From an uncultured Planctomycetaceae bacterium (lineage in GTDB: Bacteria > Planctomycetota > Planctomycetia > Planctomycetales > Planctomycetaceae), in NCBI GenBank assembly GCA_963813715.1, contig CAWFAK010000008.1, positions 224,001 through 288,000 on the forward strand: a stretch of 64,000 bases of DNA, written 5' to 3'. A program made the translations under genes and the position numbers. The notes under the pieces were generated by a model. The model was not told the origin of the DNA. It was given only the letters and a program-made list of their open reading frames with translations, and made no database searches. Position 1 is the first letter of the stretch; each line of letters opens with the position of its first letter. Shown in pieces: positions 35,775 through 42,795 of the stretch.

Positions 35775-37633
35775 GTGAAACTGCGTAGCCGTGTGAGTTC
35801 CTGGGCCGGGATGCTCGCGCTTGTCGCGCTTTTGGTCACGTTGGCCGCGCCGGTCGAGACTGCGCGGGGACAGTCGTCGAAGACCTCGGGCGATGCGGGG
35901 AAGTCGACCGCGAAGGCCGAGACGTCCTCTGCCCCCAGCACGGCAAGCGTGTCCGACCGGTTTCCTCCCAGTCCGGTCCCCTTCTACCGGGGAAATCCGG
36001 AAAACCAATCGACGGGCGTGGGTGAGTACTTCAGCCGCGTCGCGCTGATCCTGCTGGTGGGACTGCTTGTCGCCTGGATGTGGATTTGCCGCTTCGTCGA
36101 CGAAGACAGCCGCGGCCTCAAAGTACGTCCCGAGTTCTGGAATTCGATTCTTGTCGTGACGGGTGTCCTGGGTTTCATCATCGCGCTCGCCTCGCCGCTC
36201 TTCGTCGTGGGGATGGCGTCGGTGCTATTGACCTGCGGCGTGCCGTTTGGCTTTTACGTCCAGGAACGCAATCGCCGCGTTCCGGAATCGGGCAAGATCC
36301 TCACGCCTCAGCATATTCGCGGCGTCGCCATTCGGTTGTTGGCCCGCGCGGGCATCCGGTTCGGCGCGGGGGCGGCGACGACTCCTCTGCCGGGCCGCCG
36401 ATCGAGTTCATCGGAAAGTCCGACGCTAGCGGCAAGGCCGACCGCAACCGCACCAAGCAAGTCGAGAACTCCAAGGGCTATATGGCGGCCAAGGAGCTTG
36501 TCTATGACGCGATCTTGCGCCGCAGCACGGACATCCACCTCGAACCGAAAGAGGACGAGATGTCGGTGCGGCTCCGCATCGACGGCGTGATGTATCCGAC
36601 CGAGCCTTTCGATCGCGTCGTCGGCGACGCAGTGATGAACATCTTCAAGGTCCTGGGCGGAATGGACATCACCGAAAAACGCCGCGGGCAGGACGGCAGC
36701 TTCGGTGCGCGGCTCGAGCAGCGCAATATCGATTTCCGTGCCGCCACGCAGGGAACCCGCCACGGCGAAAAGCTCAGTTTGAGAATTCTCGACCAGTCTA
36801 ACTCGGTCAATACACTGGCCGGCCTGGGCATGCGGAAGAAAATGCAGGAGTCGATGCGGCAGATCGTCCACCAGCCGCACGGTTTGCTCCTGAGCTGCGG
36901 TCCCACCGGAGCCGGCAAATCGACGACGCTGTATGCCTCGCTCAAGGACGTCGACGCGTATCAACTCAACGTGATTACCGTTGAGGACCCGATCGAATAC
37001 AAGATGGCCAACGTCAACCAGATCGAAATCAACACCAAGGCCGGCCAGACCTTCGCCACCTCGCTGCGGAGCATTCTGCGGCAAGACCCCGACGTGCTGA
37101 TGATCGGGGAAATCCGCGACGGCGAAACGGCCACCATCGCCTGCCAGGCTGCAAACACGGGGCACATGGTGTTCTCGACCGTCCACGCAAACGATTCGAT
37201 CACGGCTGTTTATCGAATGCTGGAATTGGGCGTGGAACCCTTCATGGTCGCCAACTCGCTTTCGGCCGTGCTGGGACAGCGGTTGGTGCGGCGTCTGTGC
37301 AAGGAGTGCCGGGAGGCGTACAAACCGGACAAGGCCGTTTTGGAGCGACTGGAAATTCCCTCCGATCGCATCGATCAGTTTTTCCGGCCACCCTCGCAGG
37401 CAGGCGAAATGTGCCCCGAATGCAACGGCCTGGGCTACGTCGGACGGACGGGCGTGTTCGAGTTACTGGTGATCAACGATGAACTGCGCGACCTGGTCCG
37501 AGACAAAGCGGCCGCCTCCAAGGTCAAGCTGGCGGCCAAACGCAACGGAATGCTGACCATGAAGCAGGAGGGCATTCGCCTCCTGGCCCAGGGCATCACA
37601 TCGGTCGAAGAGCTGGAGCGCACGGTTAAATAG
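35775..37633 (+). CDS. PilB/GspE family ATPase with N-terminal signal/TM region, frameshift near 36380
   Basis: TDIHLEP, RIDG, GPTGAGKSTTLY, EDPIE, LRQDPDV..IGEIRD, CxxC...CxxC; hydrophobic N-part in the 35727 frame. Confidence 0.88.
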
Positions 37634-37692
37634 CGAGCCGGGCCCCGCGCACACGTTCGGTTCCGCGCACACGTTTTCGCAAAGTCGCCACC

Positions 37693-38412
37693 ATGATCGA
37701 TGTCATCCTCCTGCTGGTCCTGGCCCTCGTCACCTGGAACGTGGCGGCAGAAGGCGCCTGGGGAGCTGCCGCGGTGTTTTTGACCGTCGTCTTCTCCGGC
37801 CTGATTGCGATGAACTTTTTCGAGCCACTGGCCAACTATCTCGAGGTGTGGACGGGGCCCGATTGGGCGATGCGACTCGACTTCATTTCCCTGCTAGTGC
37901 TCTTCGGCGGAAGCATCTTTTTGCTGCGGATGCTGGCCGAGTATCTGGTGCCCAGCTTTATCGCGGTCGAGGGCCGCCTGTATGACGTCTGCCGCTTTGG
38001 TTTCGGAGTGATGACCGGCTACGTCACCATCGCCTTCCTGCTGGCGGCCCTGCACGCCGCCCCGCTGCCCCGCGAGTTCCTGGGGTTCACTCCCGAGCGC
38101 AAGAACTTCTTCGGCATGACGGCCCCGGATCGCGAGTGGCTGGGCCTCGTGCAGTACATTTCCGAAAAGTCGATGCGCTCGTCAGAAGACCACCGCATCT
38201 TCGACGGCGCATACGTCGAAGTCGAAAACCACGTCAATCAGGTCTGGCCGACGTACATCATTCGCTACGCGTCCCGCCGCGATCTCTACGCCGCGGCCAA
38301 CGGCTCGACAACGGCAGCGCCGGGTACGCCTCCCGCGGGCGTGTCGCCGGGCGGCGGCGATCAGCCGAACGCCACGCTGGGCGGCGTTCGCGAACGCGGC
38401 AGCGGGCTCTAA
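37693..38412 (+). CDS. CvpA (colicin V production)-like membrane protein
   Basis: Four N-terminal TM helices (MIDVILL...EG.WGA...IAMNFFEPLA), then a soluble tail. Confidence 0.7.
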   Translation: MIDVILLLVLALVTWNVAAEGAWGAAAVFLTVVFSGLIAMNFFEPLANYLEVWTGPDWAMRLDFISLLVLFGGSIFLLRMLAEYLVPSFIAVEGRLYDVCRFGFGVMTGYVTIAFLLAALHAAPLPREFLGFTPERKNFFGMTAPDREWLGLVQYISEKSMRSSEDHRIFDGAYVEVENHVNQVWPTYIIRYASRRDLYAAANGSTTAAPGTPPAGVSPGGGDQPNATLGGVRERGSGL

Positions 38413-38507: not shown

Positions 38508-41500
38508 CTAGTCGATCCCGTGCTTCTTCAGCTTGCTGAAGTAGGTGCTGCGAGGGATGCCCAGCAGGCGTGCTGCGCGGGCCTTGTTACCCGAACACTT
38601 TCGTAGCGCACCGAGCAGGGCCTCGCGTTCCCAGCCCGGCGTCCCCTCGGCGCTCTGCGAACTCAGCGTGGCGCCCTCGGGAAATCCCGCCGGTTGACGG
38701 CGGCTGGTTGGCTTCGTCTCGATGATCTGCGACGGCAACCGTCCGGGTCGGCCAATTTCGGCCGGCAGATCGGCCAGCGTCACGCGATCCGACTCGGCCA
38801 GCACGACGGCCCGTTCCAGCACATTTTCCAGCTCGCGCACGTTGCCCGGCCAGCGATGCCGCTCAAGCGCCGCCAAAGCCTCGGGCTCGATGTGTGTGAT
38901 CCGTTTGCCGCACTTTTGGGCCGAACGCATCAGGAAATGGAGAGCCAGCTCGAGGATGTCCTCCGTCCGTTCGCGGAGCGGAGGCATTTGAATCGTAATC
39001 ACATTCAGCCGGTAATACAGGTCTTCGCGGAATCGGCCCTGGACGATCAGTTGTTCCAGGTCCTGGTGTGTTGCGGCGATCACGCGGACGTCGACCTGAA
39101 TTGTCTGCGAGCCGCCGACCGGCTCGAAGCACCGCTCCTGCAGCACGCGCAACAGCTTGATCTGAATGTCGAGCGAAATGTCGCCGATTTCGTCGAGGAA
39201 CAGCGTTCCGCCCGAAGCGGCCTGGAAGCGGCCAATCCGGTCGCGATGCGCACCGGTGAACGCCCCTTTCACGTGGCCGAAGAGCTCGCTCTCCAAGAGC
39301 GTGGGCGAGAGAGCGGCCGAATGGACGCAGACCATCGGCCCGCCTCGGCGCGGACTGTTTTCGTGCAGCACGCGGGCCACGAGTTCCTTGCCCGTGCCGC
39401 TTTCCCCCCGGATCAAGACCGACGATTCGCTGCCGGCGACCTTGCGGACCGTGTCGAGCACGCTGTCGATGGCCCGGCTCTTGCCCTTCATATCGCTGCG
39501 GTCGAGGTCGCCCGTTTGCTGAGTCGGCGCGGCGGTCGTTGGGTTCTGGATTTGCGAAAGCTCGGCCTGCAGGACGGCGATCTGTCGCGATTGCGTTTCA
39601 ATCCGCTCGATGCGTCGGGACAGTTCATCGTTGAGCCGTTCCAGGTCCCGATCGCTCTTGACGGTGTAGAGCGCGACGTTGGTGATCTGTCCCAGAGCAT
39701 TCAAAAACGTGAAATCTTCGCCGCTAAAGGGCGTCGAGGTTTGCTTCGCTCCCAGGAGCACCAGTCCCACGGTTTCGTTGCCGATTTGCATGCCGTGGGC
39801 CAGATCGATCCGCAACTCGCGAAGCGCCGTCTGGACGCCGGGCAGGTCGCTGCGCGAACCCAAGAGGGCCCGCTGCACGTTGCCCGATTCGACGACTGCC
39901 GGGATCAGTGGATGTTCGGGCGGAAACTGCCGCGGTAAGCTTTCGGCCCCGTAGGCCGAGATCAGTCGAAACGGCGAATCCGCGGCGGTTCGCAGATAAA
40001 GGGCCGCCCGATCGACGCCAAGCACGTCGCGGCAGGAGCTCAACATCAGCGAGGCGACGGCTTCCGGATCCGCCAGCCGGCCGACGGCCCGGTTCATCCG
40101 CTCGAGCACCGCGCCCAGCTGGTATTTCTCGCGGTAGAAGCGGCGGTCGAGCATGCCCTGAAACATGTCCCGCAGCCACAACAGCAGGATTACGGCCAGC
40201 ATCAGCACAATGGAAATGATCGCCGACTGCTGCGTGAGCGGAAACACGGTCAGGTACTGTCGCGCGAACGGGCTCAGGGCAAGCATCAGCGCAAAGGCGA
40301 CCGTCAGTCCGCAATTGGCCAGGTAATACATCACGCCCTTGGTGACGATCGTGTCGACCAGGAGCAGGCGATAACGGATGACCGTGTAGGCGTAGGAGAC
40401 GGTGAAACACAAGCCGGCCGAAAAGATCCAGACCCGCGCTCCGCCCAACGCGAAAGACTCGCGCTCAAAGAGCGCCTTGAACAGCGTCACTCCCATGCAG
40501 AATGCCGTCGCCAGGCCGGCCCCCAGCAACCACTGCAGCTGAATTTGCTCGACCGGGTTGCGCGAGCTGCGATAACTGCGAAGCACGCGGGCCATCGTGA
40601 TCACGAAATAGATCGCACCGACGACCAGTGAGCCGTAGATCCCCAGGCGAATGGCGTCCAGAAACTGACGCGTCATCGCCACGTTTGGGCGGAACAGGCC
40701 CGGCCAGCTGCAGATCGCGACCAGCGTGAGCAGACCGAGGATGCCGACGATCGGCAAACCGTAGATCAGCGCCAACGACATGCGCGGTCGCCAGACCAGG
40801 GGGAGCCACGTCCGCGGAAACACCAGGAAGAAGTGCAGGCAGACGGCGGGCAGCAACAGTGCACAAACGACGCACGGTGCCGTCAGCCAAAAACTGGCCG
40901 CCACGATCCACCAGTGATTGCTGCCCAAAAACGCGCCCAGCGTCACCAGGCACAGGCAGTAAAAGAGTTGCGATGCCCGATCGAAAGGACGGTTCCAATA
41001 GACGGCGGCCCCAATGGCGAACGCCACGGTCTGCAGCACGAACCAGACGAGCGAAAAAAGCACCTCCGAGAGGGGCAACGGCCGGATCGTGACGTAGCAT
41101 TTTTGGGCCTCCGCCAGCGTTTTGCCCTGGGGCACGAACTCGATCTCCACGATGCGCGTGCCGTCGTGGTACTGGGCCAGGGCCGGCAGCCCCTCGTTAT
41201 CGTATGGGTCGGCGCCAACCGGGAGGCCGGCATCGTTGGGAGTGGGCTCGCTTGCGAGCCGCATCTGTCCGCGTGTGAAGTCGACGAACGTATTGATCGG
41301 CCAGTCCGCCATGCCGATCAGGCGGTCACCCACGGCCGGGTGCCACTTCCCATAAACGCCCTCTTGTGGGACGGTCAGCATCACCATCCCATCGGCCACC
41401 CCATTTGGCCACGGCTTATCCGAGAGCAGGCCCCGAATTCCGAGGTCGGGGGCCGCAGCGACAATGCCCAGCACAATCATGGAATAGACAAGGATGACGA

Positions 41501-41540
41501 CCCCGCAGAACATCAGCAGAAAGGCCGTTCGCGATTTCAT
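38508..41540 (-). CDS. Membrane-bound sigma54-dependent activator (periplasmic loop, about 8-9 TM, GAF, AAA+, HTH)
   Basis: GESGTGKE, ESELFGHVKGAFTGA, LFLDEIGD, RFREDLYYRLNV, WPGNVREL, GNKARAARLLGI. Confidence 0.95.
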   Translation of the reverse strand: MKSRTAFLLMFCGVVILVYSMIVLGIVAAAPDLGIRGLLSDKPWPNGVADGMVMLTVPQEGVYGKWHPAVGDRLIGMADWPINTFVDFTRGQMRLASEPTPNDAGLPVGADPYDNEGLPALAQYHDGTRIVEIEFVPQGKTLAEAQKCYVTIRPLPLSEVLFSLVWFVLQTVAFAIGAAVYWNRPFDRASQLFYCLCLVTLGAFLGSNHWWIVAASFWLTAPCVVCALLLPAVCLHFFLVFPRTWLPLVWRPRMSLALIYGLPIVGILGLLTLVAICSWPGLFRPNVAMTRQFLDAIRLGIYGSLVVGAIYFVITMARVLRSYRSSRNPVEQIQLQWLLGAGLATAFCMGVTLFKALFERESFALGGARVWIFSAGLCFTVSYAYTVIRYRLLLVDTIVTKGVMYYLANCGLTVAFALMLALSPFARQYLTVFPLTQQSAIISIVLMLAVILLLWLRDMFQGMLDRRFYREKYQLGAVLERMNRAVGRLADPEAVASLMLSSCRDVLGVDRAALYLRTAADSPFRLISAYGAESLPRQFPPEHPLIPAVVESGNVQRALLGSRSDLPGVQTALRELRIDLAHGMQIGNETVGLVLLGAKQTSTPFSGEDFTFLNALGQITNVALYTVKSDRDLERLNDELSRRIERIETQSRQIAVLQAELSQIQNPTTAAPTQQTGDLDRSDMKGKSRAIDSVLDTVRKVAGSESSVLIRGESGTGKELVARVLHENSPRRGGPMVCVHSAALSPTLLESELFGHVKGAFTGAHRDRIGRFQAASGGTLFLDEIGDISLDIQIKLLRVLQERCFEPVGGSQTIQVDVRVIAATHQDLEQLIVQGRFREDLYYRLNVITIQMPPLRERTEDILELALHFLMRSAQKCGKRITHIEPEALAALERHRWPGNVRELENVLERAVVLAESDRVTLADLPAEIGRPGRLPSQIIETKPTSRRQPAGFPEGATLSSQSAEGTPGWEREALLGALRKCSGNKARAARLLGIPRSTYFSKLKKHGID

Positions 41541-41672
41541 GGCGGGTGCTCTCGCCGAAGAGGCGTATTGGTCGCAGGGTTCGTGGGGCGAAGAGTTGCT
41601 CGAGCCGATTGTCCGAAACACGTCCGGTAGGCTCTGTCACAAACCCCCCAGCCCCCAATCACTTGTAGCGTT

Positions 41673-41726
41673 TCGGCGCCGCGAAAGCAACGATCGGCGC
41701 CGAAGCGGCGCGACGATCGGCGCCGA
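41673..41726. promoter_or_regulatory. Three palindromic TCGGCGCCG(A) boxes, putative enhancer (UAS)
   Basis: Copies start at 41673, 41694 and 41717 (21 and 23 bp apart), upstream of a -24/-12 site. Confidence 0.6.
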
Positions 41727-41741
41727 AACGGGAGGACGAAG

Positions 41742-41768
41742 TTGCAAAGTCACTTGCAGACTTTGCAA
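41742..41768. promoter_or_regulatory. Perfect inverted repeat TTGCAAAGTC-N7-GACTTTGCAA
   Basis: 10-bp perfect arms followed by an A-rich tract, between the UAS boxes and the promoter. Confidence 0.6.
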
Positions 41769-41834
41769 TAAAAATGGGGGATTTCGGCTGAAAAGGGCGT
41801 TGTTTCTCCGGTCATCGCGCGCCGAGCCACTTTC

Positions 41835-41849
41835 TGGCACGGCACGTGC
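41835..41849 (+). promoter_or_regulatory. Sigma54 -24/-12 promoter TGGCACGGCACGTGC
   Basis: TGGCAC-N5-GTGC with exact GG-N10-GC spacing; divergent from the sigma54 activator gene. Confidence 0.75.
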
Positions 41850-41860
41850 GTTACTGGAAT

Positions 41861-42080
41861 ATCGCGACGAGTTCCAATCGTCACTCGTAAGAGTGGCGAG
41901 AGCGGGATTCGGCGCTCAATTTTCGACCCAGCCTGACCCCCGAGGGTGATGTCCAGCGCGAACAAGGCCTGGTTGAGGAAGGTCCCCTGAGAGCAGCCTG
42001 ACCCACTCTGCTCATCAGTTCCCCAATCGCAAACGAACGTCCAAGGCCTTGAACGTGCACTCATTCTCGGGGGTCATTCT
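41861..42080 (+). ncRNA. Candidate structured non-coding RNA, family unknown
   Basis: GUAA-capped hairpin 41878-41899, hairpin 41900-41917, long irregular hairpin 41934-42076; no credible ORF; starts at the predicted sigma54 +1. Confidence 0.6.
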
Positions 42081-42213
42081 ATGCGCACTGGGTTTGGCCG
42101 CCGATGTCACGCGCCGGTCGACTGAGCGATCGCACGGCGTAGCCGGCGGCGCGATCTGACTCACTCTGCTGATATTTGCGCCCACCCTTTCAAGCGTTGC
42201 CGGTCGCCCGTCC

Positions 42214-42621
42214 TCAGCGACTTGGCCGGTACGTAGCGCAGGAGCGGGGGCTTTCCCAGAGCGAGACCTCGGCCACGGGCAGCCCCTCGGCTGCGGCATG
42301 GTCGTAGATCATCCGGGCGATGTTTTCGGCCGTCGGATTGTCCTGAATCAGGGTCAAAGGCTCGCCCAGTGACTTCAGGAACGGGACGGCCGGGTCGGCC
42401 TCGCACAAGATCATCCGATGATCGAGTTGGCTGTCGACCCAGGAGCAAAGCGAGCGTTTGATGTCGGCAAAGTCGACCAGCATCCCCCGCTCGTCGAGCT
42501 TGGCCGTCTCCAGCACGATCACGGCCTTGCCGTTATGCCCGTGCAGATGGCGGCACTTGCCGGAATAGTTGAGCAGCCGGTGGCCGTAACAGAAATCGAT
42601 TTCTTGGCTGACGCGGTACAT
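42214..42621 (-). CDS. queD: 6-carboxytetrahydropterin synthase (PTPS family)
   Basis: FCYGHRL..Y.GKC.HLHGHN, GM.VDF, LDH, NPTAENIA, WESP. Confidence 0.9.
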   Translation of the reverse strand: MYRVSQEIDFCYGHRLLNYSGKCRHLHGHNGKAVIVLETAKLDERGMLVDFADIKRSLCSWVDSQLDHRMILCEADPAVPFLKSLGEPLTLIQDNPTAENIARMIYDHAAAEGLPVAEVSLWESPRSCATYRPSR

Positions 42622-42795
42622 GAGGCGCGATAAATCGGGCAGGCGTTGGCGCCACGCCGTTCAAGCGGGATCCCGGCGACCGTCAGCACCAATTGGGCTA
42701 AGCAGTCGCCGGTTTGAGGGAATCGCATCCCGATTTTAGGACGGGGCCTCGCGACGAACAAGCAGCCCCGCGCCCGCAATTCAGCCCGCTCTGGC

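Follow-up and report, generated by a model that had tools for sequence, protein, structure and literature searches.

A candidate sigma-54-dependent small RNA encoded opposite a membrane-integrated activator gene in Planctomycetaceae

The question raised by the locus described here is what a sigma-54 promoter transcribes when it points away from the gene of a sigma-54 activator and towards a gene on the opposite strand. The locus is the spacer at 41541-42213 of a 64-kb stretch of DNA from an uncultured Planctomycetaceae bacterium (contig CAWFAK010000008.1 of assembly GCA_963813715.1; hereafter 'the window', meaning the whole stretch of 64,000 nucleotides), and it separates two minus-strand genes, that of the activator (38508-41540) and that of a PTPS/QueD-type protein (42214-42621; Pfam 2.2e-31), the latter convergent with the candidate RNA. 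An earlier reading, made from the letters of the window alone (the sequence-only reading), had placed here a structured noncoding RNA transcribed by sigma-54, between an activator gene and a convergent queD. Pfam matches bear out both neighbours, and the RNA itself is supported by the joint conservation, in many genera, of promoter, activator sites, activator gene and a structured RNA with a putative terminator. On the strength of these sequence comparisons, the locus very probably represents a stand-alone small RNA gene of planctomycete bacteria that has not previously been described.

Conservation and distribution

The spacer, used as query, matched all 11 other genomes of the genus. The more distant members keep two blocks, the long hairpin described below (~41913-42086, 81-95% identity) and 41633-41728, while the rest of the spacer has no match in the more diverged members. 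The order of modules in an alignment of 14 loci of the genus is two to three palindromes, an A-rich block, TGGCAC-N5-(G/A/T)TGCG, a variable hairpin, the RNA domain and a tail. Outside the genus, a collection-wide scan with a DNA pattern matched at least 120 stretches, among which at least 18 are clear relatives and most of the others are chance matches; this pattern was loose and served to collect extra sequences, not to count distribution. Those relatives whose titles were listed (titles were available for 80 of 120 stretches) had been assigned by their depositors to Planctomycetaceae, Planctomycetales or Planctomycetota.

Distribution was counted with a covariance model, R1, built from 23 sequences (alignment A2). 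Among 151 genomes sampled across the class Planctomycetia, R1 matched 21, all in the window's own family (f1): 20 of 35 genomes in f1 and 0 of 115 in 16 other families. Within a sample of f1 itself, 85 of 151 genomes and 58 of 92 genera carried a match, always as one copy per genome, which rules out a repeat or mobile element. Five complete genomes that R1 had scored as negative all hold an orthologue of the activator (5/5). Each also has, upstream of this gene, a -24/-12 site, a motif of the CCCAGCC type, a long hairpin whose apical loop is a variant one, and a U-run. Rescored with the Infernal filters off, three of these five loci match R1 at E 8.5e-10 to 1.1e-3 and a fourth (L167) is marginal at 0.012; the fifth (L170) gave no credible R1 match even then. 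The R1 count for the family is thus an underestimate, because some R1-negative genomes hold diverged copies at the same place.

Fold, parts and covariation of the predicted RNA

The RNA is predicted to be ~225 nt long (about 41861-42085), with its +1 (about 41861) placed by its spacing from the promoter. Its parts in the window are as follows.

41861..41925, + strand: predicted 5' part, a variable hairpin (about 41864-41915, GUAA loop) and an A/U-rich single-stranded spacer, from the fold
41926..41933, + strand: single-stranded motif ACCCAGCC, with CCAGC invariant in alignment A2
41934..42076, + strand: long irregular hairpin, from the minimum-free-energy (MFE) fold and from covariation on alignment A3
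41981-41989, + strand: internal conserved GGUCCCCUG, inside the long hairpin
41987-41996 / 42007-42018, + strand: apical stem, inside the long hairpin
41997..42006, + strand: apical loop CCUGACCCAC, the family's most conserved part, with CCTGACCCA invariant in the 23 sequences of A2
42027-42040, + strand: genus-conserved bulge UCGCAAACGAACGU, inside the long hairpin
42077..42087, + strand: 3' tail UCAUUCUAUGC after the closing stem, presumed transcript end

The 220 nt at 41861-42080 (+) fold with an MFE of -101.6 kcal/mol (z -6.31; 0 of 200 shuffles as good), against -92.5 for the reverse strand (z -2.94; 1 of 200 shuffles as good). An element on the minus strand was considered and ruled out by this weaker fold, by the + strand location of promoter and U-tail, and by queD being no neighbour in other genera. 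The + strand fold has three parts, namely a hairpin capped by a GUAA loop, an A/U-rich unpaired stretch with ACCCAGCC at its end, and a 143-nt irregular hairpin. All but one of the helices drawn in the sequence-only reading recur in it: the UCGUCACUC-GUAA-GAGUGGCGA hairpin, the closing stem 41934-41949/42061-42076, and the helices GCGCG/CGUGC, CAAGGCC-UGG/CCA-GGCCUUG, UUGAGGAA/UUCCCCAA and CUGAGAGCAG/CUGCUCAUCAG. The helix that did not survive is GAGCG/CGCUC, in whose place GACGAGUUCC/GGGAUUCGGC extends the first hairpin.

These parts are conserved to very different degrees. The sequence of the 5' leader is not conserved between species; within the genus it amounts to ~55-65 nt between promoter and RNA domain, unconserved yet hairpin-forming in each species, and in other genera it is 24-96 nt long or missing (3-10 nt). 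At six loci (L138, L139, L152-L155) the promoter stands just 23-30 nt before the domain, so that the RNA would start at CCCAGCC there and the first hairpin is dispensable. Three elements are near-constant while the rest drifts: CCCAGCC before the closing stem, GUCCCCUG in the internal loop and CCUGACCCA in the apical loop. The apical loop CCUGACCCAC, which we propose as a putative seed or recognition loop, varies in diverged copies, where it reads UCUGACCCAG, CGACCCAC, CCAAACCCAC, CCUACCCAC or ACAGACAAC. The closing stem P1 (41934-41949 with 42061-42076) is presumably also the stem of the terminator, and the 3' tail that follows is U-rich in most relatives (UCUUUUU, UUUUUU, UUUUUUU).

The sequence-only reading had staked the candidate on conservation of both promoter and pairing in relatives, and both are conserved. 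In alignment A3 (45 sequences fitted to the R1 model), 95.0% of pair cells hold standard pairs, a share that drops to 33-47% once the 3' partners are shifted by 1-3 columns; changes on both sides are seen in 21 of 28 pairs, including 14 of the 15 pairs of P1, and none of 500 column shuffles equalled the observed covariation values, figures that overstate independence, as A3 was fitted to the model and its sequences are related. Closing stems can also be read directly from unaligned sequence in different genera, as in CUGACCCCCGAGGGUGAUG / CAUUCUCGGGGGUCA, GGGCCCUCGAG / UUCGAGGGCCC, AGCCCUCAAGAAAG / CUUUCUUGAGGGCU and UGAUCCUCGAGAAGGC / GCCUUCUCGAGGAUC.

Promoter and activator sites

Upstream of the RNA lie a promoter and a set of palindromes.

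41835..41850, + strand: sigma-54 type -24/-12 promoter, TGGCAC-N5-GTGCG, read from the sequence and conserved in homologous loci
41671-41686, 41692-41705 and 41715-41728, no strand: three TTCGGCGCCGAA-type palindromes, putative activator sites, read from the sequence and conserved in 14 loci

The promoter that the sequence-only reading had written as TGGCAC-GGCAC-GTGC was found at 41835-41849 on the + strand (TGGCACGGCACGTGC), of the GG-N10-GC type and at the right distance upstream of the RNA. Of 45 loci, 43 have a -24/-12 match (.GG[CT]A[CT]N5.[TC]GC., expected by our arithmetic in ~2% of 140-nt stretches) no more than 140 nt upstream of the RNA domain; the exceptions are L132, with just 20 nt of upstream sequence, and L099, with a TGGCGC variant. 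The genome has rpoN on the same contig (Sigma54_DBD, 196 bits, C8:320178-320651).

The centres of the palindromes are 21-23 bp apart and lie ~139 to 183 bp upstream of the predicted +1. In the window genome (a 7.49-Mb assembly) they form the sole cluster of at least three CGGCGCCG within 60 bp, among 1305 single sites, which suggests that the activator has one target in the genome. A palindrome-type match lies 60-420 nt before the conserved domain in 37 of the 45 loci. One genus of the family (L170, genome G019) has TGTCGACA-like repeats upstream of the promoter instead of TTCGGCGCCGAA, suggesting that the helix-turn-helix (HTH) domain of the activator and its sites changed together. On the minus strand, at ~41657-41690, TTGCTT-17 nt-TACAAG resembles a promoter of the sigma-70 type that would serve the activator gene; the genus alignment keeps both hexamers, the -10 lacks the usual final T, and a promoter scan makes no call. 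The spacer between these hexamers overlaps the first palindrome, so that autoregulation of the activator would be possible.

A membrane-integrated activator

The gene that diverges from the RNA encodes the presumptive regulator.

38508..41540, - strand: gene of a sigma-54 activator (bacterial enhancer-binding protein, bEBP) of 1010 aa, with Pfam matches to Sigma54_activat (4.5e-69), AAA_lid_14, HTH_8 and GAF_3

Wherever a locus offers 850 nt or more of upstream flank (32 loci), an orthologue of this gene is divergent from the RNA, as it also is in 2 of the 13 loci with less. From its N-terminus, the protein consists of a transmembrane helix, a periplasmic PDZ-like domain (~28-165, ~135 residues), ~7-8 transmembrane helices (to ~480), a GAF domain, an AAA+ domain and a Fis-type HTH. 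No receiver domain was found in it and no NCBIfam model scored above cut-off, and Pfam gave nothing for residues 1-500 at E up to 10. A profile of the periplasmic part of 24 orthologues did find PDZ domains (DegQ at E 1.5e-4, an RseP homologue at 0.004), and nearly all of its 15 matches are named as PDZ-bearing envelope proteases (HtrA/DegP/DegQ, RseP homologues, YlbL). AF2 models reached pLDDT values of 81 and 84.5, the latter for the periplasmic part, whose best Foldseek matches are the PDZ regions of HtrA/DegP/DegQ/DegS/MucD (E 5e-3 to 0.1, TM ~0.5). A lead from a protein atlas points the same way, with a score of 0.97 to a cluster with 21% PDZ_2 members and with PDZ_2 and HisKA_7TM in neighbouring clusters. 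We therefore regard the periplasmic part as PDZ-like with moderate confidence. The whole sensor (1-480) compared with PDB gave weak, generic seven-helix matches resembling G protein-coupled receptors (E >=6e-3, TM ~0.3), which were not used for kinship.

The activator is thus an unusual one-component, membrane-integrated bEBP. A literature search, with subscription journals outside its coverage, found no bEBP that bears a PDZ domain.

The same activator in other families

The sensor part occurs once per genome in 92 of the 151 genomes of the class sample, and its distribution is wider than that of the R1 matches: 35/35 genomes of f1, 35/35 of f4, 5/5 of f6, 5/5 of f14, 2/2 of f7, 7/30 of f5, 1/1 of f12 and 1/3 of f15. 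It was not found in nine other sampled families, including f3 (0/19).

In 12 genomes of these other families we read the divergent side, and in nine of them (L198-L201, L203-L205, L208, L209) it holds a conserved protein with the motifs G-x-G-E-P-x-V-x-V-P-G-x-A-G-G and G-V-S-F-G-G. Pfam identifies seven of the eight such neighbours examined as alpha/beta hydrolases (Abhydrolase_1). A strong -24/-12 match, judged by reading, precedes the hydrolase-type gene in six of the nine (L199, L200, L203, L204, L205, L208), while L201 and L209 have weak regex matches and L198 has none. Two further loci, L206 (f12) and L202 (f15), carry a promoter, then a start of the CCCAGCC or ACCCAA type, followed by a long hairpin and a U-run, that is, an RNA of like build, and score against R1 at E 0.0017 and E 0.56, respectively; the divergent side of L207 (f14) has no recognisable feature. 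Within f1 no close orthologue of the hydrolase was found: the window assembly has one match at E 6e-4, and five complete genomes have matches of 26-31% identity (E 3e-6 to 4e-4). With a hydrolase opposite the activator elsewhere and no close orthologue in f1, the output appears to differ between families: one and the same sensor-activator would control an enzyme gene in most of them but a small RNA in f1.

What kind of transcript

Several observations weigh against the reading of this locus as a regulated small RNA gene, beyond the overstated independence of the covariation figures. Taken alone, the promoter motif is at chance level: TGGCAYN6TGC has 1 match in the 64-kb window against 1.01 expected, and 55 of 100 shuffles contain at least one. 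A simple terminator scan calls none in 41300-42700, because the tail of the window genome, UCAUUCUAU, is U-poor. Since the lone promoter motif is at chance and no terminator is called, the weight of the candidate lies in conservation across genomes and not in the window alone. Public RNA data are equivocal. Words of the stretch occur in 24 runs, and metatranscriptome contigs from the four best all cover the RNA region (X1, 41765-42123; X2, 41756-42070; X3, 41795-42082 in three pieces; X4, 41747-42168 in two pieces). Their depth is low (2-7), X1-X3 also cover parts of the flanking genes, and three contigs begin at 41747-41765, ~100 nt upstream of the predicted +1; the coverage may reflect DNA carry-over, antisense or upstream transcription, and a discrete transcript is neither shown nor refuted by it. 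On the protein side, the PDZ assignment is based on moderate scores, with no Foldseek match at E 0.001 or better. As to function, the genome holds 175 copies of the complement of the loop core, GGGUCAGG, where arithmetic with uniform base frequencies predicts ~229, and longer matches show no pattern; a blastn-short search with the RNA's full-length reverse complement turned up only perfect matches no longer than 16 nt, chance level by our arithmetic; and neither Hfq (PF17209) nor ProQ was found in the 82.6%-complete assembly, so that a chaperone-assisted mechanism of the enterobacterial type cannot be assumed. With these points counted, comparative evidence still makes it highly probable that the RNA is a genuine transcript that ends independently and is controlled by sigma-54 and the adjacent activator.

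Other identities for the element fare much worse. The long, irregular hairpin of ~145 nt gives it an overall shape like that of 6S RNA, and a divergent 6S RNA was the fallback of the sequence-only reading; this is excluded by the genome's own 6S RNA (RF00013), which lies on another contig at C16:57869-58062 (+) and scores 47.6 bits, above the gathering score of 46.4. The proposal that the RNA belongs to no known family has held up: Rfam 15, which includes Qrr, CrcZ, GlmY/GlmZ, SRP and tmRNA, gave 0 matches at gathering score in the 64-kb window and, at E up to 0.1, 0 matches in 15 homologous loci. At E up to 10, the region 41300-42500 has three noise matches (to lncRNA, miRNA and snoRNA models, E 0.096-8.4), none of them on the candidate. 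The chance that it is 6S or another known RNA family is therefore negligible.

A leader acting in cis on a downstream + strand gene, for example as a riboswitch or attenuator, would account for those genera in which the next gene (MoaA, IlvD/Edd) is co-oriented 80-170 nt behind the RNA, and for the other families, in which a promoter at this position is followed by a protein gene with a leader of 100-200 nt. The downstream gene varies by genus, however, and is convergent in the window genome and several others: it encodes QueD (convergent, here), an ECF (extracytoplasmic function) sigma factor plus kinase, MoaA, IlvD/Edd, a MOSC/molybdopterin enzyme, a convergent methyltransferase, a lipase, an enolase-type enzyme, a convergent PSD1 protein or a convergent 3-keto-disaccharide hydrolase. 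In most genera, moreover, a stem and then a U-run end the RNA, and a leader appears very improbable. Much the same slim chance applies to a conserved small protein on either strand. Open reading frames (ORFs) of 59-151 aa do overlap the region in this GC-rich genome, for example one of 104 aa at 41750-42064 (-) and one of 151 aa at 41494-41949 (+), but the overlapping ORFs have no Pfam match, and relatives that are ~95% identical differ by 1- and 2-nt insertions within the most conserved core. Two invariant motifs stand 13 nt apart in 11 sequences, 14 nt apart in 8 and 16 nt apart in 5 (13 further regex matches, on a 5' copy of the motif, were set aside), and the longest start-initiated open stretch in the domain varies from 20 to 52 codons. 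Substitutions in the stems are compensatory, and long stretches of 100% identity have no third-position pattern.

Possible mechanism

Under the reading of a stand-alone small RNA, the activator would sense at the membrane and bind the three TTCGGCGCCGAA palindromes ~140-185 bp upstream, upon which sigma-54 RNA polymerase would transcribe a ~225-nt RNA from the -24/-12 promoter at 41835-41850, with the transcript ending at the long closing hairpin. A dedicated signalling pathway facing the envelope or periplasm would then have this RNA as its output, and the RNA appears to be the sole target of the activator. By analogy with DegS and RseP, the PDZ-like domain makes a periplasmic peptide or protein end plausible as the signal, and we tentatively suggest that the domain senses such an end and that the pathway answers to an envelope or periplasmic protein-quality cue.

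Chances are about even that the RNA acts in trans, with its exposed, invariant C-rich motifs (5' ACCCAGCC, internal GGUCCCCUG and apical CCUGACCCAC) pairing with G-rich sites in mRNAs. C-rich seeds occur in Hfq-independent small RNAs of Gram-positive bacteria, and a Hfq-dependent small RNA of the enterobacterial type is not what we see here, Hfq not having been found in the 82.6%-complete assembly. A different mode of action, in which the RNA is real and sigma-54 dependent but binds or titrates a protein (a CsrA-family paralogue or another) instead of pairing with mRNA, seems to us rather unlikely, although it has points in its favour. The genome has ~11 CsrA-family matches above the Pfam cut-off (e.g. 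C7:807279-807434, C9:409150-409305 and C5:1103197-1103352), no Hfq or ProQ was found and no mRNA target emerged; moreover, three short motifs stay constant across many genera although the stems around them change, as would be the case for recognition sites, and a protein would on this view recognise the invariant apical loop and the internal loop. Known CsrA sponges carry many GGA repeats, and the conserved motifs here are C-rich, each present as a single copy per RNA, with no conserved GGA in the family alignment; the genus stretch GAGGAAGG is not kept in other genera. The many GGA motifs, mostly in hairpin loops, that mark a sponge of the CsrB/RsmZ type are thus not found in this RNA. Nonetheless, sequestration has a precedent among sigma-54-dependent small RNAs in CrcZ, as described in the excerpted text of PMC5113210.

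Comparison with known circuits

The likeness to LuxO-Qrr that the sequence-only reading had drawn extends down to gene order. As in luxO-qrr1, the small RNA gene lies directly upstream of, and divergent from, the gene of its own sigma-54 activator, and the activator is apparently dedicated; luxO and qrr1 are divergent, with qrr1 upstream at a distance of 151 bp and the sites for LuxO-P and sigma-54 between them (PMC8043402, in excerpt). The two systems differ in both components. LuxO is a response regulator fed by a phosphorelay, whereas the planctomycete activator is a polytopic membrane protein with a periplasmic domain of its own and no receiver found. Qrr RNAs are ~100 nt long with several stem-loops and need Hfq, whereas the planctomycete RNA has no Rfam Qrr match, is ~225 nt long, forms one long hairpin and occurs as one copy per genome.

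Small RNAs under -24/-12 promoters with the cognate bEBP encoded nearby are also known from CbrB-CrcZ and GlrR-GlmY, where crcZ is adjacent to cbrB and glmY to glrK/glrR. Both CrcZ and GlmY are protein decoys with repeated A-rich or specific motifs. Their activators are two-component response regulators, unlike the one described here, and the planctomycete RNA has no Rfam match. The RpoN dependence of CrcZ is described in the excerpted texts of two papers (PMC5113210, PMC6292655).

A third likeness, by inference, is to the DegS/RseP-sigma-E-MicA/RybB circuit, in that a periplasmic PDZ-type sensor would be coupled to an alternative-sigma promoter that drives a small RNA. The seed of RybB lies at its very 5' end, and in some genera a conserved seed-like motif of the planctomycete RNA likewise lies at the very 5' end. 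The planctomycete circuit differs in that the PDZ-like domain is within the activator itself, with no protease cascade or anti-sigma factor, and in that the sigma factor is sigma-54, not an ECF sigma.

Significance

We know of no characterised regulatory small RNA in Planctomycetota, and our literature search on small RNAs of Planctomycetes/Planctomycetota, with subscription journals outside its coverage, found none tied to sigma-54 or to transcription-start mapping. If the interpretation given here is true, the 'bEBP next to its small RNA' design of Vibrio, Pseudomonas and enterobacteria would extend to a distant phylum, and with a different input module: the activator is integrated in the membrane, has a PDZ-like domain of its own in the periplasm, and belongs to a genome that yielded neither Hfq nor ProQ. 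The locus offers a testable circuit of one sensor-activator, one promoter and one single-copy RNA, conserved over at least 58 genera. The enzyme gene that stands in the RNA's place in sister families would be a rare natural case of a regulator whose output changed from protein to RNA, and a handle on the purpose of the pathway.

A still wider picture is possible, though we put it forward as speculation. The PDZ-like sensor, 7-8-helix domain, GAF domain and sigma-54 activator may together form a one-component device found across the class Planctomycetia, with a single divergent target promoter, whose output was switched in one large family from an alpha/beta-hydrolase gene to a trans-acting small RNA; that RNA may act without Hfq, through C-rich seeds, in a response akin to envelope stress. 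On this picture it would found a new RNA family and, outside Proteobacteria and close allies, be the first regulatory RNA to depend on sigma-54.

Other features of the locus

One further feature between activator sites and promoter is conserved in the genus.

41770..41802, no strand: A-rich block AAAAATGGGGGATTTCGGCTGAAAAGGGCGTT, genus-conserved (alignment of 14 loci)

DNA-bending proteins bind between activator sites and promoter at many sigma-54 promoters, and this block may be a site for such a protein. In the same interval, a 9-bp inverted repeat at 41741-41767, TTGCAAAGT-N9-ACTTTGCAA, is confined to the window genome and its closest relative, and may be the site of a further regulator. 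The upstream neighbours of the locus, on the + strand at 36080-38412, encode a type II/IV secretion ATPase (T2SSE, 5.5e-110) and a CvpA-type membrane protein.

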